In this document: positions 1,960 to 19,467 of the stretch, piece after piece
How positions within the stretch are numbered: position 1 is the first letter of the stretch
How the letters are laid out: every line of letters begins with the position of its first letter
Assembly (NCBI GenBank): GCA_019459455.1
Contig: JAIBEX010000021.1
Span: 197,576 to 221,575, forward strand
Length of the DNA: 24,000 nucleotides
Direction: 5' to 3'
Source of the DNA: Weeksellaceae bacterium
GTDB lineage: Bacteria > Bacteroidota > Bacteroidia > Flavobacteriales > Weeksellaceae
Notes under the pieces: model-generated
Told to the model about the DNA's origin: nothing
Database searches by the model: none
The model's input: only the letters and a program-made list of their open reading frames with translations
Translations under genes and position numbers: made by a program

Positions 1960-4950
1960 ATGAACAAAAATTTCCCCCGCCTGTACGGCGCCACCGCCTT
2001 CCTTATGCTGAGCGTGTTCTGCTCCAATGCGCAGGCACAAACCCGAACGGTCTCGGGTACCGTAACCCACGACGGTAAACCCCTGTCCGGCGTCACCGTC
2101 TCTCAGGAAGGCAGGAGCGAAGCCACCGTAACCGGTGCCTCCGGCCGCTATCAGCTCACCGTAAGCGGTGAAAACCCTGTCCTGATCTTCCGCCATCCCG
2201 ATCACCCGCTCTGGCGTGAAGAAACAGGGGACCGCACAGAAATCGACATTTCCCTGGGCGAGAAAGTGCAGGAAATACAGGAAGTCACCCTCAATGCCGG
2301 TTACTATACGGTAAAGGATAAGGAACGCACCGGCAGCATCGCCAAAGTCACCGCAAAGGACATCGAAAACCAGCCCGTCACAAACGTCCTCTCCGCCCTC
2401 CAGGGCCGCATGGCCGGAGTCAGCATCACCCAGGGCGGCGGAACCCCCGGCGGGGGCTATGACCTCCAGATCCGCGGGAAGAACAGCCTGCGAAGGGAAG
2501 GGAATGAGCCCCTCTACATCATCGACGGCGTGCCCGTATTATCCGAGAGTCCCGCAAAACTGGGGCTGAGCGTCTTCCCCTATTCCGGCGTCAATCCCCT
2601 GAACGCCATCAGCCCGAACGATATTGAGAGCGTGGAGATCCTGAAGGATGCCGATGGCACAGCAATCTACGGCTCCCGCGGCGCCAACGGGGTAGTCCTG
2701 GTAACAACCAAAAGAGGAAAGAAGGGCCGCAATCTGCTGCAGGTAAACGCCTCGTATGCCCTGAGTGAAGTTGCAGGCAAAATGGACCTGATGGACACCG
2801 GCCAGTATCTGAAGATGAGGAAGGAAGCCTACGCCAACGACGGGATCACCACCTTTCCCGCCAACGCCCACGATGTGAACGGCAACTGGTCTCAGGACCG
2901 GTACACGGACTGGCAGGAGGAACTCATTGGCAAAAGGGCAGAGGCCCTCGCGGTGCAGGCCTCCCTTACCGGTGGCAGCGACACCACCACCTACCTGCTG
3001 AGCTTCGGCCATCAGGAACTGGGCACCGTCTTCCCTGCGCCCTACACCTATAAAACCAATACCGTGGCCGGAAACTTCACCTACCGCTCGCCGGACGCCA
3101 GGTGGGCTTTGGGCCTTACCAATCAGCTTTCCTTTCAGAAGAACAGCGTCATCAGCGAGGACCTTACGAATAAGACCCTGACGCTGAGTCCCAACGCACC
3201 GGCCCTTTATACCGCGGACGGCAGCCTGAACTGGGAGAACAGTACGTTTACAAATCCCATCGCGGCTTTTCTGGGCACCTACCGCAATGATACAAAGACG
3301 CTGAACACGGGCATGAACGCGGAGTACCGCCTGACGCCGCACATGAAACTCCGGCTGAGCGGAGGGATCTCCTGGCAGTCCTTTGAGGAATGGTCCCTGA
3401 AACCGCATACCGTGAACAACCCCGCTTTCGGCCTTACCAGTGCAAACTCCACGGCGTTTAAAAACAACCTGGAAAGTTTCTCCTATATCCTGGAACCCCA
3501 GTGGCAGGCCACCCGGGAGTGGGGGAGCCACAAAGTGGAGGTGCTGGTGGGCGGTACCCTTCAGCAGGCCGTAACCGGTCAGGAGGCCGTCCAGGGCTAC
3601 GGCTTTGAGAGCAATGCCCTGATGAACAACATAGGAGCAGCCAAAACAAAGGTGGTGGGTGACCAGGTGCGGGGCCAGTACCACTATGCTGCCGGATTCG
3701 GCCGCCTCAATTACCGCTGGAGGGACCGATACCTGCTGAACGTAACGGGAAGGCGGGACGGTTCCAGCCGTTTCGGGCCCAACAACCGCTTTGCAAACTT
3801 CGGTGCGGTGGGCGCCGCCTGGATTTTTTCTGAAGAAGACTTCCTGAAGGACAGCCGGTGGCTCTCCCTCGGCAAGCTGCGGGGCAGCGCGGGAACCGCC
3901 GGTAATGACCGCATCGGGGACTATATGTACCTGAACACCTATACCGTGGGCAGCTATATCTACGACGGCATCACGGGCCTTAACCCTTCGCGGCTTTATA
4001 ATCCCAACTTTAGCTGGGAGAAGACGGTAAAGACCGAAGCGGCCCTGGAGCTCGGCTTCCTTCAGAACAGGCTGCGCACCACCGCGGCCTGGTACCGCAA
4101 CCGCTCCTCCAACCAGTTGGTGGGTGTGCCGCTGCCGTATACCACCGGCTTTACTTCCATACAGGCCAACCTTCCGGCCACGATGGAAAACACCGGGTGG
4201 GAGTTTGAACTGCAGGCCCGGCCGCTGCGGGGCACCCGCGCGGTGCAGTGGGACACGGGCTTCAACATCAGCCTGCCCAAAAGCAGACTCGTGGAGTTCC
4301 CGGGACTGGAAGGCTCCACCTATGCCAATCAGTATGTGGTGGGCTACCCGGTAACCATTGTAAAGGTCTATCAGCTGGAGGGCATTGACGCGGCCACGGG
4401 CCTGTACCGCTTTACGGACTTCAACGGCGATGGTAAGATCTCATCGCCCGATGACAATAAGGTTATTGAGAAGATCGGTGTGGAATATTTCGGCGGCTGG
4501 AACAACCGCCTGCGCTACCGCAATGTGGAACTGTCCGTGCTCTTCCAGTTCGTGAAGCAGCGCAACTGGAACTACAACAGGATCATGCCCCCACCGGGTA
4601 CCATGAACAACCAGCCGGTGGAAGTGCTCAATGCGTGGTCGGCGGAAAATCCCACGGGAACCTATATGGCCTATACCTCCGGCACCAGCCCGCAGAAAAA
4701 CGCCCTTCATTCCGGTTTTCAGAACAGTACGGCTGCGGTCGGCGACGCCTCATTTATCCGGCTGAAGAACGTGCAGCTGAACTGGCGCATCCCCACCGGC
4801 CTCCGCGGACTGAAAGACGCCACCGTGTATGTGCAGGGTCAGAATGTCCTTACGCTGACGGATTACTTCGGCCTGGATCCCGAGTTCATCCTTACCGGTT
4901 ATCTGCCACCTTTGAAAACCTGGTCCGCCGGCGTGCAGCTCACCTTTTAA
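1960..4950 (+). CDS. susC: SusC/RagA-family TonB-dependent outer-membrane transporter
   Basis: Track ORF 1882..4950. The likely start is MNKNFPRLYGATAFLMLSVFCSNAQAQ at 1960, which gives a signal peptide. It has a carboxypeptidase-regulatory-like domain (TVSGTVTHDGKPLSGVTVS), a plug region (DIESVEILKDADGTAIYGSRGANGVVLVTTKRGK), and a C-terminal beta-barrel ending in ...SAGVQLTF. Confidence 0.95.
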   Translation: MNKNFPRLYGATAFLMLSVFCSNAQAQTRTVSGTVTHDGKPLSGVTVSQEGRSEATVTGASGRYQLTVSGENPVLIFRHPDHPLWREETGDRTEIDISLGEKVQEIQEVTLNAGYYTVKDKERTGSIAKVTAKDIENQPVTNVLSALQGRMAGVSITQGGGTPGGGYDLQIRGKNSLRREGNEPLYIIDGVPVLSESPAKLGLSVFPYSGVNPLNAISPNDIESVEILKDADGTAIYGSRGANGVVLVTTKRGKKGRNLLQVNASYALSEVAGKMDLMDTGQYLKMRKEAYANDGITTFPANAHDVNGNWSQDRYTDWQEELIGKRAEALAVQASLTGGSDTTTYLLSFGHQELGTVFPAPYTYKTNTVAGNFTYRSPDARWALGLTNQLSFQKNSVISEDLTNKTLTLSPNAPALYTADGSLNWENSTFTNPIAAFLGTYRNDTKTLNTGMNAEYRLTPHMKLRLSGGISWQSFEEWSLKPHTVNNPAFGLTSANSTAFKNNLESFSYILEPQWQATREWGSHKVEVLVGGTLQQAVTGQEAVQGYGFESNALMNNIGAAKTKVVGDQVRGQYHYAAGFGRLNYRWRDRYLLNVTGRRDGSSRFGPNNRFANFGAVGAAWIFSEEDFLKDSRWLSLGKLRGSAGTAGNDRIGDYMYLNTYTVGSYIYDGITGLNPSRLYNPNFSWEKTVKTEAALELGFLQNRLRTTAAWYRNRSSNQLVGVPLPYTTGFTSIQANLPATMENTGWEFELQARPLRGTRAVQWDTGFNISLPKSRLVEFPGLEGSTYANQYVVGYPVTIVKVYQLEGIDAATGLYRFTDFNGDGKISSPDDNKVIEKIGVEYFGGWNNRLRYRNVELSVLFQFVKQRNWNYNRIMPPPGTMNNQPVEVLNAWSAENPTGTYMAYTSGTSPQKNALHSGFQNSTAAVGDASFIRLKNVQLNWRIPTGLRGLKDATVYVQGQNVLTLTDYFGLDPEFILTGYLPPLKTWSAGVQLTF

Positions 4951-5022: not shown

Positions 5023-6399
5023 ATGAACCTCAAAAATACCCTCACAGCCCTTACCGCAGCACTGCTGCTCGGGCTTTTCTCCTGCGAGAAACTCATCGAA
5101 ACCGACTGGCCCAACAACCAGATCAGCACCGTTCAGGTCTTTGAAGATGTGCAGACCGCCAATGCCGCCCTGGCGGGCCTGTATGGCGGCCTCTGGAACA
5201 GCTCGCCGCTCTCGGGCGGCAGCGACGGCATGGGTGCGGTACTGGGAACCTATACCGACGACCTGAAATGTTACTACCCGACAAGTTCCAACGGCATCCT
5301 GGACATTTACCTGAACCAGCAGCTGCCCACCAACCTCATGGTGGAAAAGGTATGGGGCACCGGATACCAGTACATCTACGCCGCCAATGCCATTATGGAG
5401 GGTGCGGAAAAATCCCTGAGCCTGGGTTCCGCGGACAAAAAGCGGATAAAAGGGGAGGCCCTCTTCGTGCGTTCGGTGCTGTATTACAGCCTTCAGCGCA
5501 TCTATGGGGATATTCCCTACACCGAAACCACCGACTATGAAATCAACCGTCAGCTGAAGAAACAGCCCGGTACCGAAGTCCTTACGAAACTGGAAACCGA
5601 CCTCTCGCTGTCCACTCAGCTGCTCGAGGATGCCTACCGAAGCCCCGAACGGATCTACCCCAACAGGAAAGCCGCGGCATTGGTTCTGGCAAAGGTAAAG
5701 GCAGAACTCGGGAAATGGACCGAAGCGGAACTCCTGCTGAAGGATATCGGGCAGAGTTCCCTTTACACCTTTGAGCAGGATCTCACCAAAGTGTTCACCA
5801 AATCGAGGCTGCATATCCTTTGGCAACTGAAGCCCAAAAACAGCGGCGACGCCACGAAGGAGGCCACGCTGTACTACTTCACCAACGCCGTGCCCACTGC
5901 TTTTGCCCTGACTCCCCAACTGGTGGGAGCCTTTGCCCCGGGTGACCTGCGCAGGCAGGAATGGATGGTTCCGGTAACCGCATCTGCCCAAACCTTTTAC
6001 CGTGCGGCGAAATACAAAGTCCGCTCCGCTAATACCACCGAATACTCCGTGGTGTACCGCCTGGAGGAAGTGTACCTGCTGCTGGCCGAAGCGCTGATCC
6101 GTCAGGGTAAAGTCGGGGAGGCACTTCCGTGGCTCAATGCCACCCGTCAGCGCGCAGGGCTTCCTGCTCTTGCCCTGCCACTTACGCAAAATGAGGCCCT
6201 TACAGAACTGGAAAATGAATACCGCCGGGAATTCTTTGCCGAAGGCGGTCAGCGCTTCCTGACGCTGAAGCGCCTCGGAAAGCTTGGGAACCTCACGGCC
6301 GTGAAACCCAACTGGCAGGTCCACCATTCCCTCTGGCCCCTTCCGCAGAAGGAACTCCTCCTCAACACCAACCTGAACCCCCAAAACCCCGGTTATTGA
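5023..6399 (+). CDS. susD: SusD/RagB-family nutrient-binding outer-membrane lipoprotein
   Basis: It has a lipoprotein signal (MNLKNTLTALTAALLLGLFSC) and sits directly downstream of susC. SusD-like helical/TPR features are present (ANAALAGLY, VRSVLYYSLQRIYGDIPY, YRLEEVYLLLAEA, REFFAEGGQRFLTLKR). Confidence 0.93.
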   Translation: MNLKNTLTALTAALLLGLFSCEKLIETDWPNNQISTVQVFEDVQTANAALAGLYGGLWNSSPLSGGSDGMGAVLGTYTDDLKCYYPTSSNGILDIYLNQQLPTNLMVEKVWGTGYQYIYAANAIMEGAEKSLSLGSADKKRIKGEALFVRSVLYYSLQRIYGDIPYTETTDYEINRQLKKQPGTEVLTKLETDLSLSTQLLEDAYRSPERIYPNRKAAALVLAKVKAELGKWTEAELLLKDIGQSSLYTFEQDLTKVFTKSRLHILWQLKPKNSGDATKEATLYYFTNAVPTAFALTPQLVGAFAPGDLRRQEWMVPVTASAQTFYRAAKYKVRSANTTEYSVVYRLEEVYLLLAEALIRQGKVGEALPWLNATRQRAGLPALALPLTQNEALTELENEYRREFFAEGGQRFLTLKRLGKLGNLTAVKPNWQVHHSLWPLPQKELLLNTNLNPQNPGY

Positions 6400-6449: not shown

Positions 6450-9400
6450 ATGAAACAACCCACGATAAAACTCCTCCTCCTGCACCTGCTCCTGCTGTCG
6501 GCAATCCTTGATGCTCAGGACCGCCATGAAAATGAACTGGCCGGTATTATTGCCCGCACGGAGATACCCGGGCACCTCAAGGGCGCTCCCGGTGGCCGGT
6601 GGGTGGCATGGCGGAAGACCTATGATACGAGGAACGATACGCTGCGGATTCAGAATACGCTGAAGCCCGCGCGTTTTTTCCACCGTCTGCACATCCGCGA
6701 CTACGGCTTTATGCGCGGGGATGAGCTGTGGCTCCTCGGGAAGGACGGACAGGCGGAATGGCTGAATATGGATACAGGAAAGGCGGTGCGGTACAGCGGG
6801 GTGGCGGCAGTGCAGTACCTGTCCGCACGGGACCTCCTCCTCCTGCACCACACACCGGATGCCGGAAACCGGATGGTCATACTGGACCGGAAGGGAAGGC
6901 CGGTGTGTACCGTGGAGGACGTGGTGCGGTTTACCGTAACTCCGGAAGACACCGTGCTTGCCGTAACCGGCCCTAAGGGTGGTCCGTACAGGGTGGTGAA
7001 AACCGCGGGCACCGGTCCGGTACAGGAGGTGTTCCGTACAGATAAGGAGGTCACAACCACGCTCAGCCCGGCGGGTGCGCAGGGTGTGCTGGCAATCGTG
7101 GCCGATGCCGGTACGCGTGATGCCGTATTTGTGGAATCCGCCACCGGCAAGGTGCACCGCCTCTCCGCACTGGTGCCAGGGCCGTTTAAAAGTGTCGTGC
7201 CGGAACTGCCGGCCGGAGGCGAAGGCTTTCTGCTGAAACTGATCTCCTCGGCACCGCCAAAGCAGACAGAGCTGCCCGATATATGGTACGGGAGCGACCG
7301 GAACCTGCAGCAGAAATTCTATCCGGACCGCACGCAGACCGTTATTTGGCATCCCGCCCGCAACACCGTGGACGATTTCGGGGGCTACCGCTTCAGCCGC
7401 TCCTTCGGAGTGAACAGCGGACGGTATTTCCTGAGTTTCGACGAAACGGCACTGCAGGATTATACCGAGCTTTACCCGCCGCTGAAAATGTACAGGTACG
7501 ACGCGGTCACGGGATCACATGCGGTAATGGATACCATCAGCCGGGAACTGTTCGCAGATCCCAACGGAAAGTGGCTGCTGGCCCCTGTGGCCGGACGAAT
7601 ACCTGTTGCCGATTACAGAGATCCTAAAGTAGCCCGATGGCATCTTTATGAAACTGCCGGCGGAAGAAAGACCGTCCTGAACAGTGCGGGGCTGGGGGCT
7701 CCGTATTTCACCGGTTCGGGCACCATTTTATTCGACGGCGATGGGGGTATCCGCAGCTACCTGCCCGCACAGAATAAACTGCAGATGATGGCCCCGTTTG
7801 AAGGATGCCGCGTAAAGATCCTGAACGGAACCGCAACGGCCCTGCTGCAGCCCTTCCGGTTTTTTACCCCGGCAGTGAATGAAGACCAGCCCCTTTTGCT
7901 GGAAGTGACCGAAAAAGAGACCGGCAGGGTGATGTTCGCCCTCCGCCACCGGGGCATCACCACCGTTATTGTTCCGTTCACCGCGGACCGGATCACGCAT
8001 TTTACTCCTGATGCCGGGCTGGAACGTTTTACCTGGATCCGCGAAAACCACAACAAACCTCCTGCCGTGGAAACCGCCACCCGCAGCGGGAAGGTGCGTC
8101 TGCTCTATGCCAGCAATGCAAACCGCAGGCAGGAAGCGGCCCTGCATCTGGAACTTACGACTTATAAAGGGATATCGGGCGGCAACCTGAAGGGCCTGCT
8201 GTATCGACCAGCACACTATGAAGCCGGAAAGAAATATCCCGTGGTCGTCCATATTTATGAAAACCAGAGCCGCTATGCGAACCGGTTTATTGCACCGACG
8301 CTGAAGGAATTCGTGGGCTTTAACATCCGGACCCTTACCGAAAAAGGATATTTCGTTTATCTGCCGGACATTGACTACGGGGAGGCAGGCCCCGGCCTTT
8401 CGGCACTGCACTGCGTGAACCGCGCGGTGGATGCCCTTCTGGAAAACCCGGCGGTTGATGCGGGCAGGATCGCCCTCATCGGCCAGTCCTTCGGAGGCTA
8501 TGAAACCAACTTCATTGCCACCCGGTCAGGTCGCTTCGCCACGTATATCTCCGGTAATGCGCCGGCTGATCTCGTACATAATTATCACGCTTTCAGCTAC
8601 AATTATTTCAAGCCCGGCTTCTGGCGTTATGAGACCCAGCAGTTCCGCATGGGGGTCTCTTTTGCTGCCGGTAAGCAGAAATATATTGCCAACAGTCCGC
8701 TCCACCATGCGGAAAAGGTACAGTCCCCCATGCTGCTCTGGACCGGTCTGGAGGACCGCAATGTAGACTGGGAAGAAACCCGCACCTTTTACAATGCGCT
8801 GAAGCGGAATGACAAAAAAGTGATTGCCCTGTTTTATAAGAACAACGGCCACGGCATGCAGCATGAGGATGCCATGATGGACCTGAGCAAACGCATCCTG
8901 GACTGGCTGGATTATTTCCTGAAGGGAATCCCCGCCGAATGGATAGGGAAGGAGATGGAGTCGCGGCCGGTCGCGCACCTGACCCCAGATGCAGCGCCAG
9001 AAAGTCCTGCATGGATCCGGGAAAACCATAATCTGCCTCCTGCAGTGGAAACCGTCACCCGCAGCGGGAGGGTGCGTGTACCTCAGGCTGGCAATGCCCA
9101 CCTCCGGCAGGAAGTAGCCTTACATCTCGAACTTACGGCTTATAAAGGGGTGTCGGGCGGGAACCTGAAGGGGCTGCTGTACCGTCCCGCCCATTATGAA
9201 ACCGGAAAGAAATATCCTGCGGTCGTCCATATTTACGAAGACCAGAGCCGCTTTGCAAACCGGTTCATTGCACCTACCCTGAAGGAACCGCTCGGTTTTA
9301 ACATCCGGACCCTTACTGAAAAAGGATATTTCGTTTATCTGCCGGACATTGATTATGGAGACGAAGGTCCGGGCCTTTCGGCACTGCACTGCGTGAACCG

Positions 9401-10013
9401 CGCAATGGATGCGCTCCTGGAGCATCCCGGAGTGGATGCGCGAAGGATGGCGCTCATCGGCCAGTCTTTCGGAGGCTATGAAACCAACTTCATTGCCACC
9501 CGGTCAAATCGTTTTGTTGCTTATATCTCCGGCACCGCGCACGCTGATCTCGTACATACTTATCATTCGTTCAATTACAATTACCTTAAGCCCACCTTTT
9601 GGCGTCATGAAACTCAGCAGGTCCGCATGGGGGTCCCCTTTGCTGCCAATAAGCAGAAATACATTGCCAACAGTCCGCTCTACCATGCCGAAAAGATACA
9701 GGCTCCCATGTTGCTTTGGACCGGTTTGGAAGACCGAAATGTGGATTGGGAAGATACCCGAAGCTTTTATAACGCCCTGCGCAGAAACGACAAAAAAGTG
9801 ATTGCCCTGTTCTATAAGAACAATGGCCACGGCATGGAGCACGAGGATGCCATGATGGACCTAAGTAAACGCATCCTGGACTGGCTGGATTATTTCCTGA
9901 AGGGAATCCCCTCCGAATGGATAGGGAAGGAGATGGAGCAAGATAGTGGTCCGGAAGTGTTAACCGGCGGACCACGAATCAAAATGCAGATCTTGGATTC
10001 CACCACTTTATAA
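6450..10013 (+). CDS. Secreted S9 (prolyl oligopeptidase/DPP-type) serine peptidase: N-terminal propeller-like region plus two tandem alpha/beta-hydrolase catalytic domains
   Basis: It starts with a signal peptide (MKQPTIKLLLLHLLLLSAILDAQ). Two copies of the catalytic domain are present. Each has the nucleophile elbow GQSFGG (8481..8498 and 9459..9476), the acid motif GLEDRNVD and the His motif NNGHGM. Confidence 0.9.
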   Translation: MKQPTIKLLLLHLLLLSAILDAQDRHENELAGIIARTEIPGHLKGAPGGRWVAWRKTYDTRNDTLRIQNTLKPARFFHRLHIRDYGFMRGDELWLLGKDGQAEWLNMDTGKAVRYSGVAAVQYLSARDLLLLHHTPDAGNRMVILDRKGRPVCTVEDVVRFTVTPEDTVLAVTGPKGGPYRVVKTAGTGPVQEVFRTDKEVTTTLSPAGAQGVLAIVADAGTRDAVFVESATGKVHRLSALVPGPFKSVVPELPAGGEGFLLKLISSAPPKQTELPDIWYGSDRNLQQKFYPDRTQTVIWHPARNTVDDFGGYRFSRSFGVNSGRYFLSFDETALQDYTELYPPLKMYRYDAVTGSHAVMDTISRELFADPNGKWLLAPVAGRIPVADYRDPKVARWHLYETAGGRKTVLNSAGLGAPYFTGSGTILFDGDGGIRSYLPAQNKLQMMAPFEGCRVKILNGTATALLQPFRFFTPAVNEDQPLLLEVTEKETGRVMFALRHRGITTVIVPFTADRITHFTPDAGLERFTWIRENHNKPPAVETATRSGKVRLLYASNANRRQEAALHLELTTYKGISGGNLKGLLYRPAHYEAGKKYPVVVHIYENQSRYANRFIAPTLKEFVGFNIRTLTEKGYFVYLPDIDYGEAGPGLSALHCVNRAVDALLENPAVDAGRIALIGQSFGGYETNFIATRSGRFATYISGNAPADLVHNYHAFSYNYFKPGFWRYETQQFRMGVSFAAGKQKYIANSPLHHAEKVQSPMLLWTGLEDRNVDWEETRTFYNALKRNDKKVIALFYKNNGHGMQHEDAMMDLSKRILDWLDYFLKGIPAEWIGKEMESRPVAHLTPDAAPESPAWIRENHNLPPAVETVTRSGRVRVPQAGNAHLRQEVALHLELTAYKGVSGGNLKGLLYRPAHYETGKKYPAVVHIYEDQSRFANRFIAPTLKEPLGFNIRTLTEKGYFVYLPDIDYGDEGPGLSALHCVNRAMDALLEHPGVDARRMALIGQSFGGYETNFIATRSNRFVAYISGTAHADLVHTYHSFNYNYLKPTFWRHETQQVRMGVPFAANKQKYIANSPLYHAEKIQAPMLLWTGLEDRNVDWEDTRSFYNALRRNDKKVIALFYKNNGHGMEHEDAMMDLSKRILDWLDYFLKGIPSEWIGKEMEQDSGPEVLTGGPRIKMQILDSTTL
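7998..9938 (+). repeat. In-frame tandem duplication inside the peptidase gene (unit 978 bp = 326 codons; copy 1 is 7998..8960, copy 2 is 8976..9938)
   Basis: Three checkpoints give an identical 978-bp offset: HFTPDA/HLTPDA at 7998/8976, GQSFGG at 8481/9459, and GKEME at 8946/9924. The copies are clearly diverged, with many synonymous differences, and I saw no indels between the checkpoints. Confidence 0.9.
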
Positions 10014-10170: not shown

Positions 10171-10418
10171 GAAAACACGAACCTTTGCCCCGACCCTAAA
10201 GGGTGGTTTCGTGTTTTCTTACCACATTTCTCAAAAAAAATCAGCGGACTCCCTTCAGGGTTAGGGGTAAAACCGCTGATTTTTTTCTTTAAGCGTCTGA
10301 GATAAAGTCTGCCCAAAACTGCTTAATAACCCCAATCCTTATGAAAAATTCCAACCGACTCCCTTTTTATGCTGAGCCTGTCGAAGTAAGGTCTTGGGGT
10401 AAAACGGCTCGAATTTTT
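10171..10418. repeat. Left copy of a roughly 245-bp composite direct repeat built from three hairpin modules
   Basis: It aligns by eye to 10877..11121 with an offset of about 706-709 bp. The modules are GAAAACACGAAcc-[CCCCGACCCTAAAGGG]-ggTTTCGTGTTTTC, then AAAAATCAGCGG-[ACTCCCTTCAGGGTTAGGGGTAAAA]-CCGCTGATTTTT, then TTCCAACCG-[...GCTGAGCCTGTCGAAG...GGGGTAAAA]-CGGCTCGAA. Confidence 0.85.
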
Positions 10419-10422
10419 GACT

Positions 10423-10821
10423 TTACATTTCCAGTTCCTCTATTTTAAGGCTTATCAGTTCAAGTACACAAGCTATATTTTCCTCTACTTCCTTATTGGT
10501 GAATCTGATAACTGCACAGCCTTGTTCCTCAAGGGTTTTTGTCCGATCTGTATCGTGCAGTATCTGGTTATCATTGTCGTGATACTCCCCGTCAATTTCA
10601 ATGATGAGGCTGTACTTATGACAATAAAAATCTGCAATATAAAGGTGGATGGGATGCTGCCTTCTGAACTTTAATCCTTTGAACTGCCTGTTTCTCAATT
10701 TTTCCCAAAGCATTTTTTCACACTTCGTAAGCGGATGCCGTAGCTTTACTGCTTTTATAAATCCCTCATTTGGTGCCCCCTTCCACATGCCATTATCATG
10801 ATTAGGTTTTATGGTATCCAC
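10423..10821 (-). CDS. DUF559 / Vsr-like endonuclease-domain protein
   Basis: The sequence PLTKCEKMLWEKLRNRQFKGLKFRRQHPIHLYIADFYCHKYSLIIEIDGEYHDNDNQILHDTDRTKTLEEQGCAVIRFTNKEV fits the DUF559 pattern (R.Q..i..yivDFyc......iE.DG..H........D..R...L...G..vlRf.n..v). The gene is AT-rich relative to the flanks. Confidence 0.85.
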   Translation of the reverse strand: MDTIKPNHDNGMWKGAPNEGFIKAVKLRHPLTKCEKMLWEKLRNRQFKGLKFRRQHPIHLYIADFYCHKYSLIIEIDGEYHDNDNQILHDTDRTKTLEEQGCAVIRFTNKEVEENIACVLELISLKIEELEM

Positions 10822-10876
10822 TGTGTATTTTTTTAAATTAAGGATAAATTAAGTTCACGTTCATTCAGTGGTACTT

Positions 10877-11121
10877 AGAAAATCCGAATCCATGACCCCG
10901 ACCCTAAAGGGGGAGATCCGGATTTTCTTACCGCGTTTCAAAAAAATCAGTGGACTCCCTTTAGGACTCGGGGTAAAACCGCTGATTTTTTTTTAAGCGT
11001 CTGAGATAACGTCTGCCCAAAACTTCTTACAAACATCAATCCTTATGAAAAATTCCAGCCGGCTCCCTTTTTATGCTGAGCCTGTCGAAGTAAGGGGCAG
11101 GGGTAAAACGGTTGGAATTTT
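10877..11121. repeat. Right copy of the roughly 245-bp composite direct repeat
   Basis: It has the same three hairpin modules in the same order as 10171..10418. Additional partial modules lie at 10013..10089 and 11122..11158. Confidence 0.85.
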
Positions 11122-11183: not shown

Positions 11184-11216
11184 AAAAAAGGGCTGCTTCC
11201 GTAAAGAAGCAGCCCC
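11184..11216 (-). terminator. Rho-independent terminator of the minus-strand operon
   Basis: A perfect 10-bp stem (GGGCTGCTTC / GAAGCAGCCC, 11190..11199 and 11206..11215) with a 6-nt loop. On the minus strand it is followed by TTTTTT, and it lies 6 nt after the stop codon at 11222. Confidence 0.85.
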
Positions 11217-11221
11217 TTTCT

Positions 11222-11491
11222 CTAGTTTATCCTGCTGAGCTGCAGACCGCACATCGTCTCATTCACAAACTGGTACAGGTTGTGCGTCGTAACACCGTCG
11301 TCCCACGTACATGCCGGGCCTTCAGTCGTTGAGCAGTCCACCGGTGTTTCTATACACTTCACTCCGGGAGCTGCCGGGTCATAACGGAAGCCCTGTACAA
11401 TAGTGGCATTTTTTTCTTTCGCCACGCCTGTTGCAAATGCACTTCCTGCGCCGATTAGAATAACGGCTGCAGGTAAAATGAATCTTTTCAT
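11222..11491 (-). CDS. Small secreted 4-Cys protein (resembles the Bacteroidota DUF6520-type family; this is from recollection only)
   Basis: It has a signal peptide (MKRFILPAAVILIGAGSAFA). The mature part is about 69 aa with four Cys (VKCIETPVDCSTTEGPACTW...ETMCGL). It starts 24 nt downstream of the MauE/DoxX gene and ends at the terminator. Confidence 0.75.
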   Translation of the reverse strand: MKRFILPAAVILIGAGSAFATGVAKEKNATIVQGFRYDPAAPGVKCIETPVDCSTTEGPACTWDDGVTTHNLYQFVNETMCGLQLSRIN

Positions 11492-11515
11492 CTTTTTAAA
11501 AATTTAAAATGGTGC

Positions 11516-13027
11516 CTACTCTCTTGAAGGTTTTCGGCTTCCCCTGCTTTTAAAATACCGGGTAAGGTTCTGCGCAAAACGGTACCGGATAAGTTCACTG
11601 CCGGCCAGAACGAACAGATGTTCGTCCGTCGCCAGAAATTGTATTCGTTTAATATTTTCGGGTCGGCTGAGGTAAAAACTGCCGGTGTAACGTTGCTCTT
11701 CGGTGCTGTACACATCAATTACTGCGGCGCGTTTCCGGAGGGTTTTGTCTTCATGCAGCCCTGGCCGGTCGGATTCGATAAAGATCAGGCCCCCGTATGC
11801 CGATGCTTTTTTGTTCACGGTAACCGGAGGTGCGTTCATTTGTTCAGCCCCGGACGGAAGGCGTACCGACTTCACACGCTTCACACTGGCCGTATCAATG
11901 GTGTGATAGTTCGCGTACTTCCGCATCCCGTAATCGGTTCCCAGAAATTCATTCCGGTAGTAGTACAGGTAGAACAGCTTTTCCGTGGCGGGGTCCTGAA
12001 GCAACTGCCCGTCTGCACCGAATATACCGTCCTTACCATGCTTCAGAAGCTGCTCATTTAATTCAAGCGGCGGCTCTGCCTGCGGCTTCAGAAGTCCAAG
12101 TACATGGCTCCTCGTTTTGCTGCTTTGGGCACGGATACCGAAACTTAGTGAATCAATAACTTCAAGCTGGTCGAAATACGCCTGCTTATGACTCAGCGTC
12201 TTGGCTTCGGCCTGTCCCAGTTCGCCGGAATAGATAACCGGCACACTGCCGTCGTAAGCATAAAACCGGTTCCCGCTTACTGCAAGCCGTACCGACCGGA
12301 ACAGGTAGGGGCTGTGGTCAGGCTTGATCTTCATCTCCTGCAGCACAGTCAGTGCAAAGTCAGCGGAAGTCAGAAGGAATGGCGTTCCGGTGTTTCCCAG
12401 CCAAACCTGATCCTGTGCTGTTCCGGCAAAATAGTAGGCATCACCCGGCAGGGTCAGACGCTTTTCTTCTGTCACAGGGTGGGGAATATACCGCCTGGTA
12501 AAGTTGTTCTCCTTTTTAATAATATGTTCTGAGGAAAGGAACAGACCAACCATGATTCCCGCGGCGGTCACAAACAGGACGCCCAGATGAAGCCGTTTTC
12601 TGCGGCCCGTAATATGGTTTCCCGTTGCAATCCATATCCCTGTCGCCCCAAGTATCACACAGACAAGGTTGAATATAAGATGCTCCGTCCATCCGAGATC
12701 TTCCAGAATGCCTCCGCAGGAGCACGGCACAAAATCACTGAAATGAAGAATAAGGTAAATATAGACGGTGAACGCTACCATAAGGCCGGTCGCCAGATAA
12801 AGGGATAGGGTTTTAGTCCGCTCGAAGCAAAACAGCAGTACGGTAATAAGCTCGGCACCGATAACTCCGTACGATACAGCTTCTGCGTATGCACTTAGTA
12901 ACGGCGACTGTGCCAGTTGTACCTGAAACTCTTCAAATTCCAGCACTTTGCTTAAAGCGGCGTAAGTAAACAGCAGCATAAAGAAGAAGCAGATCGCCCG
13001 TACAGTATTTGATTTTATATTTTTCAT
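11516..13027 (-). CDS. MauE/DoxX-type redox-associated membrane domain fused to a roughly 330-aa C-terminal domain of unknown function
   Basis: The N-terminal ~150 aa has 4-5 predicted TM helices and the motif FVPCSCGGILEDLGW, which is characteristic of MauE/DoxX-like proteins. The rest is beta-rich with no motif I recognise. Confidence 0.85.
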   Translation of the reverse strand: MKNIKSNTVRAICFFFMLLFTYAALSKVLEFEEFQVQLAQSPLLSAYAEAVSYGVIGAELITVLLFCFERTKTLSLYLATGLMVAFTVYIYLILHFSDFVPCSCGGILEDLGWTEHLIFNLVCVILGATGIWIATGNHITGRRKRLHLGVLFVTAAGIMVGLFLSSEHIIKKENNFTRRYIPHPVTEEKRLTLPGDAYYFAGTAQDQVWLGNTGTPFLLTSADFALTVLQEMKIKPDHSPYLFRSVRLAVSGNRFYAYDGSVPVIYSGELGQAEAKTLSHKQAYFDQLEVIDSLSFGIRAQSSKTRSHVLGLLKPQAEPPLELNEQLLKHGKDGIFGADGQLLQDPATEKLFYLYYYRNEFLGTDYGMRKYANYHTIDTASVKRVKSVRLPSGAEQMNAPPVTVNKKASAYGGLIFIESDRPGLHEDKTLRKRAAVIDVYSTEEQRYTGSFYLSRPENIKRIQFLATDEHLFVLAGSELIRYRFAQNLTRYFKSRGSRKPSRE

Positions 13028-13122
13028 CAGTTTGATTTTATACAGTGTATCACATCTGGTTCACTCAGGGGCAGGTTTTCGCAGATCACCGCCCCCGATA
13101 CCTCTCTGTAATGGCGGCCCCG

Positions 13123-13302
13123 CTATCCGGGCCTGATAAGTCTCCACCGGACTTTTTTACCGCAGTAGTCCGGCATGATCTGGTTTTTAGCCAGTACGGC
13201 ACTCGTCGTAAGTGCTCCCGTTATTTCCCATTCTCCGGATTCCGGACAGAGGGTACCGCTTGCTGCGGTTTTGGTTATCGGTAGTTCTGGTGTCTTTTTC
13301 AT
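13123..13302 (-). CDS. Hypothetical 59-aa protein with two Cys; below the track threshold
   Basis: My own translation: MKKTPELPITKTAASGTLCPESGEWEITGALTTSAVLAKNQIMPDYCGKKVRWRLIRPG*. It fills the otherwise empty gap between 13330 and 13027 on the operon strand. All plus-strand track ORFs here look spurious. Confidence 0.35.
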   Translation of the reverse strand: MKKTPELPITKTAASGTLCPESGEWEITGALTTSAVLAKNQIMPDYCGKKVRWRLIRPG

Positions 13303-13329
13303 GGGATTGGAGTTTCTTTCTGGTTTTCA

Positions 13330-13581
13330 TTATGGTACAGTTCGCCACTGCTGCCTGTCTTTTGTTGGCTCGTCATCTTCGTCACCGGTGTCGCCCGGTT
13401 CGGAATAAGCGGACCCTTGTGTGGAATCGCTTACTTTTTTATATTCCTGCCCTGCATTTTTCGGCAGGGCTTTCATCTCAGCTGCCACGGCTGGTTCTGG
13501 CAGTGGATGGTCAGTCTCCGGTCGGCAAGAGACGGCAAATAAGAGGATCATTAAGGTCGGAATGGTGAGATACTTTTTCAT
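13330..13581 (-). CDS. Small acidic lipoprotein (83 aa)
   Basis: It has a signal peptide with a lipobox (MKKYLTIPTLMILLFAVSC). The mature part is disordered and acidic (GDTGDEDDEPTKDRQQWRTVP). It is the first gene of the minus-strand operon and is divergent from the AraC-type regulator. Confidence 0.7.
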   Translation of the reverse strand: MKKYLTIPTLMILLFAVSCRPETDHPLPEPAVAAEMKALPKNAGQEYKKVSDSTQGSAYSEPGDTGDEDDEPTKDRQQWRTVP

Positions 13582-13822: not shown

Positions 13823-15559
13823 ATGCTGCACCACTCTTTTTCGACCGTAGAAATGTTTAAAATTGGATGGATTGTCTGTTTTGCTCTTGCCTGCGTTTCT
13901 GCTCGTGGTCAGAAACGCACCGATATTCCTTATAAACAGTTTCAGGAAATCTATGACCGCTATCCGGAAAACGATGTACGCGGGCTGCCTTTTGTTCAGA
14001 TGCACATCGGGCAGGCCATAAAAGACAGCCGCCCCAAGCAGCTGCTCATTGCGTATGAAAATGCGGTTTTCTTTTCTACCGGCAGGCAGGACAAACTCAG
14101 GTATGCAGACAGTGCTGTTGCGGTAGCCCATAACCTGAAGGACAGCAGCCGGATAAGCAGGGCCTATTTGGGAAAGGGCATTGTCTATTATTTCAGTTTT
14201 CGCAGGTATAAGTCCGCACTCAATGAATATCTGAAGGCATACGATTATTCCGGTTCTGACCGCGGGTCCTACCTGCACCACAAGATCCGGTATCATTTGG
14301 GTGAGGTAAAAAGCTACCTTGGCCATTGTGAAGAGGCTTTGGAGCATTTTGAAAACTGCCTCCCGTACTTTCAGAAGAACATCGCAGCCGGCAACCATCC
14401 GAACGAAATCTACAACAGCACGCGCGGCTATCTGAACACCCTCCATCAGATGATTGTCTGCAACCAGAGACTGCGTTTGTGGGCCAGGGCCGATTCCCTG
14501 ACCGCCACAGCGGCGGCAGCAGTAAACCGGCTGCACGGATTTGAGCAGGAAAAGGGATACGTCTATAAGTGCCTGGGACGTTCTGCGTTCCGGAAAGGGA
14601 ACTACCGCTCCGCCATTGCATTGCTCCGAACATCCAACAGGCTGCTGGCGCGGGCGGATGATTTTACGTGGACTGCGCTGAATGATTTCTACATCGGTAA
14701 ATCCCATCTGCACATGAAGCAGACGGCGAAAGCAGTGGCCTGCTTTCAAAAAGTGGATTCCTCCTTCATTAAACACAGGTTCCTGCTTCCCGAATTGCGG
14801 GAAAACTACGAACTGCTCATTACACATTACAGGAAAGCAGGGCGGCAGGACCGCGAACTTTATTACACACAGCAGTTACTGAAGGTGGACGCCTTCCTGG
14901 CAGAAGATTTTGATTACGTCATGACGCGCATGCACAAAGAATATGATACCCGGACGCTTCGGGCAGATAAAGTGAGGCTCGAAAAAGCGTCTCAAACCCA
15001 GTCACGGATGATCACCCTGCTTGCAGTTACCGCCGCGCTCCTGTTATTGTTCCTGGTGTACCGGTACCACAGGGCGAGGCGGGTACATCACAAGTACCTG
15101 CAGCTCCTTGCAAAGCTGGAGGCTCTTCAGAATAAAGGGGGAACGCCTGGCACCCCTGCGGGAACCGTGGGACGGAAGTATGAATACCGTGATGAAATTA
15201 CGCAGGAACTTTTGGAAAAACTCCGCATATTTGAAGAAAAGAAAGGTTTTACAGCAAAAGGCCTGACCCTCCGCAAACTTGCCAGCAAATTGGATACGAA
15301 TGGTACCCACTTATCCTACGTGATTAACGGGTATAAAGGGATGAACTTCAATACCTACCTTAAACACCTGCGGATCAATTATATTACCCAGTTGCTGTAC
15401 AGTGACAGGAAGTACCTGAACTACACCATGGATGGCCTGGCCGCAGAATGTGGTATTGCCTCCCGCCAGAACTTTTCGGATCATTTTTATGAGATCAACG
15501 GTTTGCGGCCACGGGAATTCATTGAGAAGTACAGAAAGGAGAACCGGCCCGGTGTGTAG
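13823..15559 (+). CDS. Membrane-anchored TPR-containing AraC-family transcriptional regulator (one-component sensor)
   Basis: There is an N-terminal signal/anchor (an alternative start is MFKIGWIVCFALACVSARGQ at 13853). This is followed by about 380 aa of TPR-like repeats, a TM helix (ITLLAVTAALLLLFLVY) and a C-terminal AraC HTH (LTLRKLASKLDTNGTHLSYVING...GIASRQNFSDHFYEINGLRPREF). Confidence 0.9.
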   Translation: MLHHSFSTVEMFKIGWIVCFALACVSARGQKRTDIPYKQFQEIYDRYPENDVRGLPFVQMHIGQAIKDSRPKQLLIAYENAVFFSTGRQDKLRYADSAVAVAHNLKDSSRISRAYLGKGIVYYFSFRRYKSALNEYLKAYDYSGSDRGSYLHHKIRYHLGEVKSYLGHCEEALEHFENCLPYFQKNIAAGNHPNEIYNSTRGYLNTLHQMIVCNQRLRLWARADSLTATAAAAVNRLHGFEQEKGYVYKCLGRSAFRKGNYRSAIALLRTSNRLLARADDFTWTALNDFYIGKSHLHMKQTAKAVACFQKVDSSFIKHRFLLPELRENYELLITHYRKAGRQDRELYYTQQLLKVDAFLAEDFDYVMTRMHKEYDTRTLRADKVRLEKASQTQSRMITLLAVTAALLLLFLVYRYHRARRVHHKYLQLLAKLEALQNKGGTPGTPAGTVGRKYEYRDEITQELLEKLRIFEEKKGFTAKGLTLRKLASKLDTNGTHLSYVINGYKGMNFNTYLKHLRINYITQLLYSDRKYLNYTMDGLAAECGIASRQNFSDHFYEINGLRPREFIEKYRKENRPGV

Positions 15560-15593: not shown

Positions 15594-16442
15594 ATGAATT
15601 CAAAACTGCTTTTCAGTAAATGCGACGCTCTATGGAAACAGCTGAATGAGAACACGGACCGGCTGCGGCGGGAGCACAGTGACTTTTTTGATTTTGCGGA
15701 AGGGGTATTGGCGGAAACGGACGAAGCGGTGCGGCAGCTTAAAGCGTGGATCACTACACATGAATTCGGCTGTTGGCAGGAGGAGGTGACCTTCTTCAGG
15801 GAGATAAAGCCCAGATTTGTTTCCCGCTTTATCTATTTTTCCCGCATCCTTTCGGTGGAGGCTTCTGTACCCTCCACAGGCGCGAAGGAACTGAGAAAAT
15901 ACTATGAAAAAGAACTGAATGCACTCGACTATTTTTCCTCGGAAAACCGGGATTTCATTAATTATTACCGTAGGAAAGCCACCTACCTGGACCTGAAGTA
16001 TTTTGTCCGCTTCCGTTACGATCTGAAAGTAAAACTTGCCCCCGATCTTCACAGCTATGATGAGAAATTCTCGACATCACATGATCTGACTGTTGCACAC
16101 ATTCTGGCTAATGATGAACTGGAAATCTATCTGCGCGGAAAAATAAGAAACACGGAAAAAACTTCGGTGGAAGAAGCCGCTCCCTCAAGACCGCTTCACT
16201 GGTCCGCCTCCAAAACGGCGCTTGTGGAACTTTTGGTTGCGCTGCACCACGCCAGGTGCTTCAATGGCGGCAATACCGAATTCTCCGAAATCGTCCGGTG
16301 GGCGGAGCGCTCCCTGGACATTGACCTGGGGCACTACCATAAAACCATTGGCGAAATCCGGAACAGAAAGATCGAACGCACGAAATTTCTCAAAATGTTG
16401 AATGAAGGTCTGACGCAAATGTTTGAGGAACTCGATGAATAG
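15594..16442 (+). CDS. rteC: RteC-domain protein (an excision-regulator family from Bacteroides conjugative transposons)
   Basis: Track ORF 15432..16442 overlaps the previous gene, so I prefer the start MNSKLLFSK at 15594. RteC-like motifs are present: EVTFFREIKPRF, YYEKELNALDYF, FINYYRRKATYLDLKYFVR, FSTSHDLTVAHILAND, LHWSASKTALVELLVALH, and IRNRKIERTKFL. Confidence 0.88.
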   Translation: MNSKLLFSKCDALWKQLNENTDRLRREHSDFFDFAEGVLAETDEAVRQLKAWITTHEFGCWQEEVTFFREIKPRFVSRFIYFSRILSVEASVPSTGAKELRKYYEKELNALDYFSSENRDFINYYRRKATYLDLKYFVRFRYDLKVKLAPDLHSYDEKFSTSHDLTVAHILANDELEIYLRGKIRNTEKTSVEEAAPSRPLHWSASKTALVELLVALHHARCFNGGNTEFSEIVRWAERSLDIDLGHYHKTIGEIRNRKIERTKFLKMLNEGLTQMFEELDE

Positions 16443-18091: not shown

Positions 18092-18306
18092 TTCTGCCGG
18101 CCGGTTTTCACTGCGGTCTGGCTCACCGCACTGGCGATGGCACCTGCGAGTGCGAGGTAGCCTGCGGCTGCGATGACGGCGGCCGGCAATGCGACCGGGG
18201 CCGTGGCAATGGCGCCTGCTACCCCTGTCAGGATAAGTCCTGCGTTCCTGACCTTTCGGAAGAAGCGTGGTGTAGGCGCTTTCAACCGCTGAACGATCTC
18301 TTTCAT
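18088..18306 (-). CDS. Gly/Ala-rich two-TM membrane miniprotein (72 aa)
   Basis: It has a basic N-terminus (RLKAPTPRFFRKVRN) followed by AGLILTGVAGAIATAPVAL and AAVIAAAGYLALAGAIASAV. There are 4-nt overlaps with the neighbouring genes at both ends. Confidence 0.65.
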   Translation of the reverse strand: MKEIVQRLKAPTPRFFRKVRNAGLILTGVAGAIATAPVALPAAVIAAAGYLALAGAIASAVSQTAVKTGRQK

Positions 18307-18707
18307 AAACCTGCTTTTTTAATTGTTAACGTTAAACCGATGCCATGATCCAGCACAGGATACAGGCGTTCTTTCATTCGCTGCAGGGCCATCTGTGAAT
18401 GAGCGCCCTTTCCTTCCCCGGTATGCTGCAGCACCGGAGCAATACATCCGCGCAATTCTTTCACCGCGTCGTTTGCCCCGTGGAAGAGAATGTACTTCCT
18501 GCCGGGTACGCCCAGAATTTCGAAGTGGTTTTTGAATCTGGGGCTGAACCGTCTGCGGACGTCGTACTTTCCTTCCGGAATGCATGAAATGCCAGGCTGA
18601 TTGTCCTTCCACGGCAGTTCGACCGTCCTGCAGATTTCCTCACCGTAGAAGAGTAACACTCCATTTACTCCCCGGGGGTGGTAGGTTCTGAGTAGGAGGA
18701 TTTCCAT
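18303..18707 (-). CDS. DUF5675-like protein with a YkuD-like His...Gly-Cys motif (putative cell-wall-active enzyme)
   Basis: The pattern TVELPWKDNQPGISCIPEGKYDV...FEILGVPGRKYILFHGANDAVKELRGCIAPV matches my recollection of the DUF5675 pattern (T.E.......S.IP.G.Y....SP.F....L..VPGR..IL.H.GN......GCI). FHGAN..(x8)..GCI resembles the L,D-transpeptidase (YkuD) catalytic motif IHGTN...GCIR. Confidence 0.7.
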   Translation of the reverse strand: MEILLLRTYHPRGVNGVLLFYGEEICRTVELPWKDNQPGISCIPEGKYDVRRRFSPRFKNHFEILGVPGRKYILFHGANDAVKELRGCIAPVLQHTGEGKGAHSQMALQRMKERLYPVLDHGIGLTLTIKKAGL

Positions 18708-18708
18708 C

Positions 18709-19467
18709 TTACGGTGTACCTGAAACCTTCACGATGCGCAAGGCATTGAAGGCTCCGTTTAACAGCGGATAGTGGAACCCATTCACCGACTGGTAAAAGC
18801 TGATCCCGAAAAGCAGGAAGAGCGGATTCACCGAAGCAGCAGGCAGGGCATTCTCCAGGTTAATCAGCGCGGTGGGCTGCGATTCGATTTTCATAATGGC
18901 GGTTTCGCTGAAGGCGGAAGCCGTAACCTTAGACTCGAAGTTAATGTCCAAAGCAGCAGATACCAGTTTGAAGTGGGTAGCCGCCGGATCAGAAATGATT
19001 ACTTCCGTTCCATCAAAGGGGTTTATTGTGACGTTGGCCTCTCCTGCTACGCGGTCCAGGGTGAGGGACAGCGGCGCCTTGAAACTTGTTTCGAGCGGCG
19101 AGGTGGAGTTAAAGTCGAAGCCTTCCAGCAGTTCCGCTTCACCGTCGATTACATTCCTCAGTCCGCGCGGGTTTACCATATCCAGGTGAATCACTTTCAT
19201 CATTTCCTGGGTTAGGCGGTTCTGAAGGGATTTGCCGCCGAAGGAAGTAAGTAGGGTACCCATGGCGTTTTTAAGCACCTTGGCGGCATTACACGCGCGG
19301 CCGAATTCGGCCATGTTTTCGCGGGTTCTTGCGAACCTCGGATCCGTCAGCATTCTACCCGGTGCGACCCTGAGTCTCTCTTTGGCCATATAGCCATGTT
19401 TGGTCCGGTAAAAGGTGATGTCGGCCATGGTACCGTCCAGCTTGATAATTCCTCTTTGTTTTGCCAT
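18709..19467 (-). CDS. Conserved-looking hypothetical protein (252 aa), first gene of the operon
   Basis: The sequence begins MAKQRGIIKLDGTMADITFYRTKHGYMAKERL...RTRENMAEFGRA... I recognise no domain. Its stop codon is 1 nt from the start of the next gene. Confidence 0.75.
   Translation of the reverse strand: MAKQRGIIKLDGTMADITFYRTKHGYMAKERLRVAPGRMLTDPRFARTRENMAEFGRACNAAKVLKNAMGTLLTSFGGKSLQNRLTQEMMKVIHLDMVNPRGLRNVIDGEAELLEGFDFNSTSPLETSFKAPLSLTLDRVAGEANVTINPFDGTEVIISDPAATHFKLVSAALDINFESKVTASAFSETAIMKIESQPTALINLENALPAASVNPLFLLFGISFYQSVNGFHYPLLNGAFNALRIVKVSGTP

Follow-up and report, generated by a model that had tools for sequence, protein, structure and literature searches.

The stretch of DNA analyzed here (hereafter "the window") is 24,000 nucleotides (nt) of contig JAIBEX010000021.1 from a Weeksellaceae bacterium, and all nt and residue numbers refer to it and to its proteins. 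On its minus strand a gene for a 503-amino-acid (aa) membrane protein, a MauE-type domain fused to a beta-propeller, lies directly upstream of a gene for an 89-aa, four-cysteine protein of the DUF6520 family, and we think it probable that this MauE-propeller protein is a dedicated oxidase for the neighboring mini-protein. The 503-aa protein would be a quinone-linked, DsbB-like disulfide generator with its CSC loop and propeller facing the periplasm; DUF6520 would be exported by Sec, lose its signal peptide and fold to a small beta mini-protein with two structural disulfides; and the propeller would stand in for the thioredoxin-fold carrier (DsbA or MauD) presumed for other MauE proteins, acting as a docking platform. 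The pair would be one arm of a self-contained, horizontally mobile module whose other arm would be a SusC/SusD importer and a periplasmic S9 peptidase; the oxidized mini-protein is most probably a partner or a target of that second arm. The minus-strand operon, from its first gene to its terminator, and the parts of the fusion protein (TM, transmembrane) are as follows:

13330-13581, minus strand: acidic lipoprotein, 83 aa, signal ending in the lipobox Cys, conserved C-terminal TG-DDDDEPxKD(K/R)QHWR
13123-13302, minus strand: 59-aa two-Cys open reading frame (ORF) lacking a signal peptide, both Cys conserved within the motif SGxxCPxSGxWE...MPxYCGxxVxW
11516-13027, minus strand: MauE-propeller fusion protein, 503 aa (Pfam MauE match, AlphaFold model, more than 1,800 full-length homologs)
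Residues 1-140 (nt 12608-13027), minus strand: MauE core of four TM helices
12716-12724, minus strand: codons of Cys102-Ser103-Cys104, the CXC motif in the TM3-TM4 loop, invariant in 90 aligned homologs
Residues 141-180 of the 503-aa protein: fifth TM helix and conserved juxtamembrane motif SEHIIKKENNFTRRY
Residues ~181-485 of the 503-aa protein: six-bladed beta-propeller
11222-11491, minus strand: DUF6520 mini-protein, 89 aa, four Cys (Pfam PF20130)
11190-11215: hairpin terminator 3' of the DUF6520 gene, having 7 GC pairs in its 10-bp stem and, next on the minus strand, T6

All the elements that had been predicted from the sequence alone (hereafter the original prediction), four minus-strand ORFs and a terminator, are present, and the ORFs, separated in the order listed by gaps of 27, 95, and 24 nt, are genuine genes and not chance ORFs. 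For the survey of other genomes, the ORFs of 80 loci with a MauE-propeller gene, drawn from four orders (Flavobacteriales, Sphingobacteriales, Chitinophagales, and Bacteroidales), were searched with the window proteins over flanks of +/-6 kb, and conserved neighbors were identified both by unbiased clustering of all ORFs and by direct searches. The DUF6520 gene lies in the same direction 5-50 nt downstream of the MauE-propeller gene in 79/80 of these loci, the sole exception (L024) being one in which the sequence ends before a DUF6520 gene could fit, so that the linkage across taxa on which the original prediction depended does hold, in all four orders. A reverse look-up that started from one distant DUF6520 protein (extra loci L081-L084) recovered the same neighbors.

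The 503-aa protein matches the Pfam MauE model (PF07291) at 102.2 bits, over residues 8-132 only, and the cut-off is 27; membership in the MauE family is supported. The MauE-type N-terminus with a PCSCGG motif (residues 101-106) had been proposed originally, and this assignment is sustained both by the Pfam match and by the invariance of the C-x-C. In alignments of 25 and 90 sequences, C102-S-C104-G-G, K27 (TM1), E59 (TM2), and many propeller positions are invariant. The window protein reads C-S-C-G-G-I at this point: the Gly after the CXC is kept, while the MauE-typical Phe (F-G) is replaced by Gly in 90/90 homologs. An AlphaFold model run with the 90-sequence alignment (predicted local distance difference test, pLDDT, 83.8; predicted template modeling score, pTM, 0.72) consists of five helices (4-29, 45-66, 69-96, 113-135, and 141-173) and then 26 strands (residues 185-484); K27 is placed inside helix 4-29 and E59 inside helix 45-66, and the loop that joins helices 69-96 and 113-135 holds the CXC motif. 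The N-terminus and the loops 66-72 and 135-146 are rich in K/R, and the topology we infer from the sequence would leave these three in the cytoplasm, with the CSC loop, an invariant QSPLLSAYA loop, and the propeller in the periplasm. For the CXC loop a periplasmic position is suggested by the positive-inside rule and by the Sec-exported partner; the propeller would be outside the cytoplasm because its stand-alone relatives (below) begin with a basic N-terminus and a single TM helix.

The C-terminal domain, for which the original prediction had raised the idea of a propeller, is indeed one, judging both from the strands of the AlphaFold model, whose number fits six blades, and from Foldseek, which against the PDB returned generic beta-propellers only, at 7-13% identity (NHL, TM-score 0.62; the DUF4221 protein BVU_1028, 0.52; WD40, Ycf48, and BamB). 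No Pfam model covers the propeller domain, and a family-profile sequence search of the PDB gave nothing relevant. The MauE-propeller homologs, labeled in databases as "MauE/DoxX family redox-associated membrane protein," "DoxX family," or, wrongly, "TerC," include full-length proteins of 43-50% identity from Chryseobacterium, Elizabethkingia, Pedobacter, Sunxiuqinia, Prolixibacteraceae, and others, and a scan of one genome per GTDB species yielded at least 568 relatives.

The two domains are not always joined. A propeller-only search against 1.84 billion representatives returned 1,534 clusters; among the 148 top propeller representatives, 86 are fused (they carry PCxCGG) and 62 are stand-alone, the latter being 350-375 aa long, with one TM helix at the N-terminus and the juxtamembrane motif of the fused form. 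In the three loci reached by reverse look-up from stand-alone propellers (L085-L087), the same trio was recovered: a separate 145-149-aa MauE gene lies directly upstream, abutting the propeller gene or overlapping it by 4 nt, and a small ORF of 80-94 aa lies downstream, with the four-Cys DUF6520 pattern in L085 and a Pfam DUF6520 match in L086. Since MauE core and propeller are fused in some genomes and adjacent in others ("Rosetta-stone" evidence), they most likely act together.

The 89-aa protein matches Pfam DUF6520 (PF20130) at 34.6 bits, with a cut-off of 25.4. As a single query it found only four homologous proteins (one, from a Weeksellaceae metagenome-assembled genome, is identical to it), and the family was recovered by profile search instead; all 115 aligned relatives match the DUF6520 profile, and all named matches are Bacteroidota. 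One DUF6520 sequence, the distant one used for the reverse look-up, is found unchanged in several Bacteroidota species. Residues 1-20 form a Sec signal peptide (..GAGSAFA|T), leaving a mature part of ~69 aa with Cys46, Cys53, Cys61, and Cys81, and both the signal (…GAGxAFA|T) and the four-Cys pattern are kept across 72 distinct sequences, that of the window included. In the 115-sequence alignment (~38% mean identity) C46 and C53 never vary, and C61 and C81 are conserved at >=90%; in the alignment of 46 sequences C53, C61, and C81 are invariant and C46 reaches >=90%. Conservation of these cysteines, as the original prediction had supposed, is thus confirmed. In the AlphaFold model, run with the larger alignment, residues 30-89 have a pLDDT of ~90 and form five strands (31-37, 46-54, 62-64, 69-75, and 81-84), and a comparison of this model with PDB folds gave no significant match (best E-value 2.7). 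Cys46 and Cys53 are on one strand and therefore cannot pair with each other; on the model, the disulfides are likely to be Cys53-Cys61, which would close a hairpin, and Cys46-Cys81, which would hold the ends together, so that the cysteines look like structural staples and not like a redox-active site. As only a Sec signal is present, the description of the protein as "secreted" holds only as far as the periplasm, barring a further export step. One database label calls a family member a "fimbria pilin," but a conjugative pilin was rejected: the predicted fold is all-beta, and 29 loci are without a nearby marker of an integrative and conjugative element (ICE). We found no paper that mentions DUF6520 or describes the MauE-propeller/DUF6520 module.

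The proposed activity leans on a preprint of March 2026, in which Escherichia coli dsbB mutants regain motility and PhoA activity when given a MauE protein of Caldithrix or Desulfatibacillum; each Cys of the CXC, which lies in the periplasmic loop between TM3 and TM4, is essential, and a conserved Lys in TM1 and Glu in TM2 line a docked quinone (bioRxiv 10.64898/2026.03.05.709764). According to the same preprint, fusions to thioredoxin-fold domains make up 8.2% of MauE proteins; it mentions neither propeller fusions nor Bacteroidota. The window protein shares with these oxidases the Pfam MauE domain, the four-TM core, the CXC between TM3 and TM4, and, at matching positions, the Lys of TM1 and the Glu of TM2; it differs from them in its fifth TM helix and propeller (fused or adjacent) and in its G-G instead of F-G, and the module differs in that it has no thioredoxin-fold partner and does have a specific neighboring substrate candidate. 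Among the ORF clusters of the 80 loci, no thioredoxin-fold family is conserved near the MauE-propeller genes, which makes the propeller the obvious candidate for docking.

Other known systems resemble the pair in part. MauE has been tied to maturation of the disulfide-rich small subunit of methylamine dehydrogenase (van der Palen et al., 1997), and candidate Streptomyces clusters for peptides that are made on the ribosome and modified after translation (RiPPs) have mauE beside Cys-rich precursors. The mau cluster shares with the window a MauE gene beside a small exported disulfide-containing protein, whose maturation in mau is MauE-dependent; here, however, DUF6520 has 4 Cys rather than 12 and no sign of a quinone cofactor, and phylum and context are different. 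Membership in a mau cluster was rejected, as there is no MauA, MauB, MauD, or MauG among the conserved neighbors within +/-6 kb, where the families that recur are just DUF6520, S9 peptidase, SusD, SusC, and regulators. In uropathogenic E. coli, DsbL/DsbI and an arylsulfate sulfotransferase provide an example of a dedicated DsbB-type oxidase in an operon with its specific periplasmic substrate, and a propeller is involved there as well; there the enzyme that serves as substrate is the propeller, and the system includes a DsbA-type carrier, whereas here the propeller belongs or is tethered to the oxidase, with a mini-protein of ~69 aa as candidate substrate.

The functional unit is larger than the operon first described. 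The MauE-propeller/DUF6520 pair at its center was recognized correctly, but the conserved S9, SusD, and SusC genes, which lie outside the coordinates of that operon, were overlooked. The relevant genes on the plus strand of the window are:

1882-4950, plus strand: SusC/RagA-family TonB-dependent outer-membrane transporter (TIGR04056, 650 bits, cut-off 368)
5023-6399, plus strand: SusD-family outer-membrane lipoprotein (Pfam SusD-like_3, SusD_RagB)
6450-10013, plus strand: periplasmic S9-family serine peptidase, 1187 aa (Pfam Peptidase_S9), convergent with the DUF6520 gene
13823-15559, plus strand: divergent regulator with a signal peptide, a tetratricopeptide repeat (TPR) domain, a TM helix near residue 410, and an AraC helix-turn-helix (HTH) domain (Pfam HTH_18 and TPR families)
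15594-16442, plus strand: RteC-family regulator (Pfam RteC, E=1.8e-65), with its likely start Met at 15594, giving 282 aa

The SusC and SusD genes are adjacent and match their families, as in the SusC/SusD transport pairs of loci of the polysaccharide-utilization type. A convergent operon near DUF6520 includes the S9 peptidase in 72/80 loci, SusD in 69/80, and SusC in 67/80 (the SusC count being limited by flank length), and an S9 ortholog is convergent downstream of DUF6520 in L081-L086 as well; in compact loci of other genomes, only ~15 nt separate the stop codon of DUF6520 from that of S9. The S9/SusD/SusC trio also accompanies the split variants with separate MauE and propeller genes, and an ECF (extracytoplasmic function) sigma/FecR pair precedes the SusC-SusD-S9 operon in L081-L084. 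The core module is MauE, propeller, DUF6520, S9 peptidase, SusD, and SusC: 29 loci carry this core alone, and 34 add RteC, TPR-AraC, and the 59-aa ORF, with at least the S9 gene.

The window S9 peptidase is itself unusual, since it contains two full catalytic domains, each with the GQSFGGYE serine motif; the doubling reflects a tandem duplication of 978 nt, with ~80% identity between the copies (repeat 7993-8292 vs. 8971-9270). Its orthologs measure 813-873 aa (~840), that of the closest relative (L001) being 873 aa.

What stands upstream of the core varies. A TPR-AraC regulator is found in the same position and strand as in the window in 47 of the 80 loci, a short AraC-like regulator in 17, a Crp-like one in 11, and a NusG/UpxY-like one in 9; the regulator pairing, which the original prediction had regarded as part of the architecture, is therefore not a fixed feature. 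RteC orthologs (281-289 aa) follow TPR-AraC in 42 loci, and in the TPR-AraC protein the TPR domain would be periplasmic and the HTH cytoplasmic, judging from its sequence. The 59-aa ORF is at the same position in 41 loci, all with TPR-AraC and all but L067 with RteC, and the 83-aa lipoprotein in ~37, only where TPR-AraC is present; neither matches a known family. Of the four-gene operon as originally drawn, the MauE-propeller/DUF6520 pair is conserved, but the lipoprotein and the 59-aa ORF are tied to one regulator type and are lineage-specific add-ons of one sub-lineage. The window also carries a second TPR-AraC gene (20505-22433, minus strand), 23% identical to the first, and beside it a divergent small acidic lipoprotein gene (22565-22783, plus strand), weakly like the 83-aa lipoprotein (tblastn E=0.1), which suggests a recurring regulator-lipoprotein unit. 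Because the lipoprotein is restricted to TPR-AraC loci, and because the second TPR-AraC has one of its own, we assign it to the regulator unit and not to the redox pair.

Parts of the module appear to have been inherited and exchanged together. The distance matrices of all module parts correlate (Spearman 0.25-0.90), so that the two convergent operons are best regarded as inherited as one unit. Mean pairwise identity across loci is lowest, and evolution fastest, for S9 (36%) and DUF6520 (40%), and SusC (60%) is the slowest. Five genomes contain two module copies each (L002/L060, L022/L030, L004/L065, L053/L074, and L005/L067), with identities between same-genome copies of 42-55% for MauE-propeller, 29-40% for DUF6520, and 23-40% for the S9 peptidase; the persistence of such divergent duplicates suggests non-redundant specificities. 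The partial rank correlations are:

SusC-SusD (known partners): 0.73
MauE-propeller (fused pair): 0.40
Propeller-S9: 0.27 (range 0.27-0.46 over measures)
DUF6520-S9: 0.15 (Pearson 0.37), reached by 0/500 permutations
DUF6520-MauE-N: 0.11
DUF6520-propeller: -0.01

The mirror-tree signals of DUF6520 are weak and confounded by similar evolutionary rates; taken together, the values hint that the S9 peptidase is functionally tied to the redox arm.

The module is frequently found in the company of mobile elements. In related loci it lies directly after a CTnDOT-type tra operon (TraG-TraQ), and other copies are near a type IV secretion system coupling protein, DUF3853 and HTH_17 genes, or a relaxase. 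Papers on Elizabethkingia ICEs describe RteC genes as known ICE components and list TonB receptors and AraC regulators as cargo; the MauE-propeller/DUF6520 module is not described in them. The 24-kb window itself contains RteC, though no tra genes, and on these sequence features the window copy is likely carried by an ICE. A tblastn search of PLSDB gave no match for plasmid copies. A reading of the locus as a defense system was rejected, as there were no PADLOC matches.

Several points weigh against the dedicated-oxidase explanation. Both the direction of electron flow and the direct contact in which DUF6520 would be oxidized are steps that we infer. Once the other parts are controlled for, the divergence of DUF6520 follows that of MauE-N and S9 only faintly and that of the propeller not at all, and with a partial rank correlation of -0.01 there is no specific co-evolution support for propeller-DUF6520 docking. 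An earlier report cited in the preprint raised possible reductase activity for a MauE (bioRxiv 10.64898/2026.03.05.709764), and the G-G after the CXC departs from the MauE norm. The DoxX-type protein of the bufferin operon is dispensable for maturing the neighboring 4-Cys peptide (PMC11626156). Finally, a generic host oxidase could form two disulfides, and the need for a dedicated one is unexplained. On the other side are the linkage, the conserved Cys and CXC, and the activity of the preprint oxidases, and we retain the original suggestion of a dedicated MauE-type folding partner to that extent, although it had missed the conserved context.

That context suggests further readings. The closest parallel to the gene logic of the whole module is the enigmatic isopeptidase-type lasso clusters (astexin/AtxE2 type), which combine a regulator, a constrained peptide and its maturation gene, a prolyl oligopeptidase-family peptidase, a TonB-dependent transporter, and a sigma/anti-sigma pair, and have no exporter (PMC9266682). 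By this analogy, DUF6520 may leave the cell, maybe with cargo, re-enter via its cognate SusC/SusD, and be cut by its cognate S9 peptidase, a tentative idea that we regard as possible but rather unlikely; it extends the dedicated-oxidase explanation and does not replace it, because the MauE-propeller protein would stay the maturation enzyme. The shared gene logic includes the ECF sigma/FecR pair of L081-L084 (PMC9266682), and in NCBIfam the S9 peptidase has its best match in the AtxE2 lasso isopeptidase family (NF033523); this match, however, reaches 88.5 bits where the cut-off is 400 and is confined to the generic hydrolase domain, and since there are also no lasso cyclase or leader-protease genes in the neighborhoods, membership in an AtxE2 lasso cluster was rejected. 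Here a Sec-exported protein would be constrained by its disulfides and not by an isopeptide-threaded ring, and the transporter belongs to the SusC/SusD type. The two parts that evolve fastest are DUF6520 and S9, and several old, divergent copies of the whole module per genome are what cognate sets would show; the DUF6520-S9 value is the largest partial correlation involving DUF6520, but it is weak and could reflect similar evolutionary rates. DUF6520 has a Sec signal only, with neither a type IX secretion system C-terminal domain nor a lipobox, so that no outer-membrane route is evident, and its alignments contain no conserved cargo-binding residues (His, Met, or acidic clusters). A mobile "protein-phore," in which a stapled mini-protein would be made by its own oxidase, released, recaptured by SusC/SusD, and dismantled by S9, is accordingly a speculative prospect, and we would give it no more than a modest chance; if true, it would be a protein-sized Bacteroidota counterpart of the isopeptidase-type lasso-peptide clusters, and the propeller would be the first non-thioredoxin domain known to dock substrates for a DsbB-like enzyme.

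We consider it improbable that the redox arm instead serves digestion, with MauE-propeller and a DUF6520 carrier reducing or reshuffling the disulfides of imported peptides for the S9 peptidase, whether for nutrition or for resistance to Cys-rich antimicrobial peptides. The two arms are conserved together, the propeller co-varies with S9, the module has no thioredoxin-fold carrier, a slot that the four-Cys DUF6520 could take, and ICE carriage would suit a resistance or niche trait; the reductase activity once proposed for a MauE, as cited in the preprint, would fit as well. MauE proteins, though, complement DsbB as oxidases and have no DsbD-like features (bioRxiv 10.64898/2026.03.05.709764), and the DUF6520 Cys are not in a CXXC or CXC arrangement and, on their predicted strands, resemble structural staples. 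Less likely still is the bacteriocin, adhesin, or signal role entertained in the original prediction, which has found no specific support. DUF6520 is small, exported, and fast-evolving, and the TPR domain, if periplasmic, could bind a peptide, but a bacteriocin or cell-cell signal sensed by TPR-AraC would have to account for the unrelated cytoplasmic regulators found at loci of other types; immunity, ABC-exporter, and C39-peptidase genes are not among the conserved neighbors, no crossing of the outer membrane is evident, and there is neither a double-glycine leader nor, as noted, any PADLOC match. We likewise give very little credence to a periplasmic metal buffer resembling the bufferins, whose BufA1 has a similar format (Sec signal, four Cys, a folded core of ~68 aa) and a DoxX/MauE-type membrane protein, BufD1, in its operon (PMC11626156). 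Some database entries do call DUF6520 members DUF2282, and ICEs of these bacteria often bear metal-resistance cargo; however, 0/115 members match the DUF2282 profile even at E<=1, no MNIO (DUF692) or DUF2063 gene occurs among the conserved neighbors of the 80 loci or in the gene tables of the look-ups, and the membrane partner, dispensable in the case of BufD1, is here invariably present and propeller-bearing. Bufferin membership was rejected on the basis of these absences.

MauE was established as a general disulfide-forming enzyme only in 2026. The module provides a natural experiment on how MauE meets its substrates, in that a propeller, built-in or separate, takes the place of the thioredoxin carrier and the obligatory candidate substrate is small enough for biochemistry. 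The module has five to nine genes and occurs in at least 568 species-level genomes, often in multiple divergent copies and frequently next to genes for conjugation, which makes it a common trait, traded horizontally, among both environmental and clinical Bacteroidota (e.g., Chryseobacterium and Elizabethkingia). The lasso parallel suggests a recurring strategy, that of a constrained peptide with a private importer and peptidase, and this module may make that strategy tractable.

Other features of the window deserve mention. A DUF559 endonuclease-like gene (10423-10821, minus strand) sits between the convergent operons, inside 10234-11121, and is bordered by direct repeats of ~136-190 nt (10234-10417 and 10940-11121) with hairpin units AAAAAAATCAGCGG…CCGCTGATTTTTTT. 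GC content across the window (1-24000) steps from 55-60% in the SusC-SusD-S9 region (2-9 kb) to 41-51% elsewhere, the MauE/DUF6520 operon included. A DUF5675 gene (134 aa) and a neighboring 252-aa ORF without a known family (18303-19467, minus strand) are repeatedly found together close to the module: five related loci (L001, L054, L056, L068, and L073) have the 252-aa ORF, and three of these (L054, L068, and L073) have DUF5675 too. Downstream of the second small lipoprotein gene, a long open frame (22945-24000, plus strand) runs off the end of the window.

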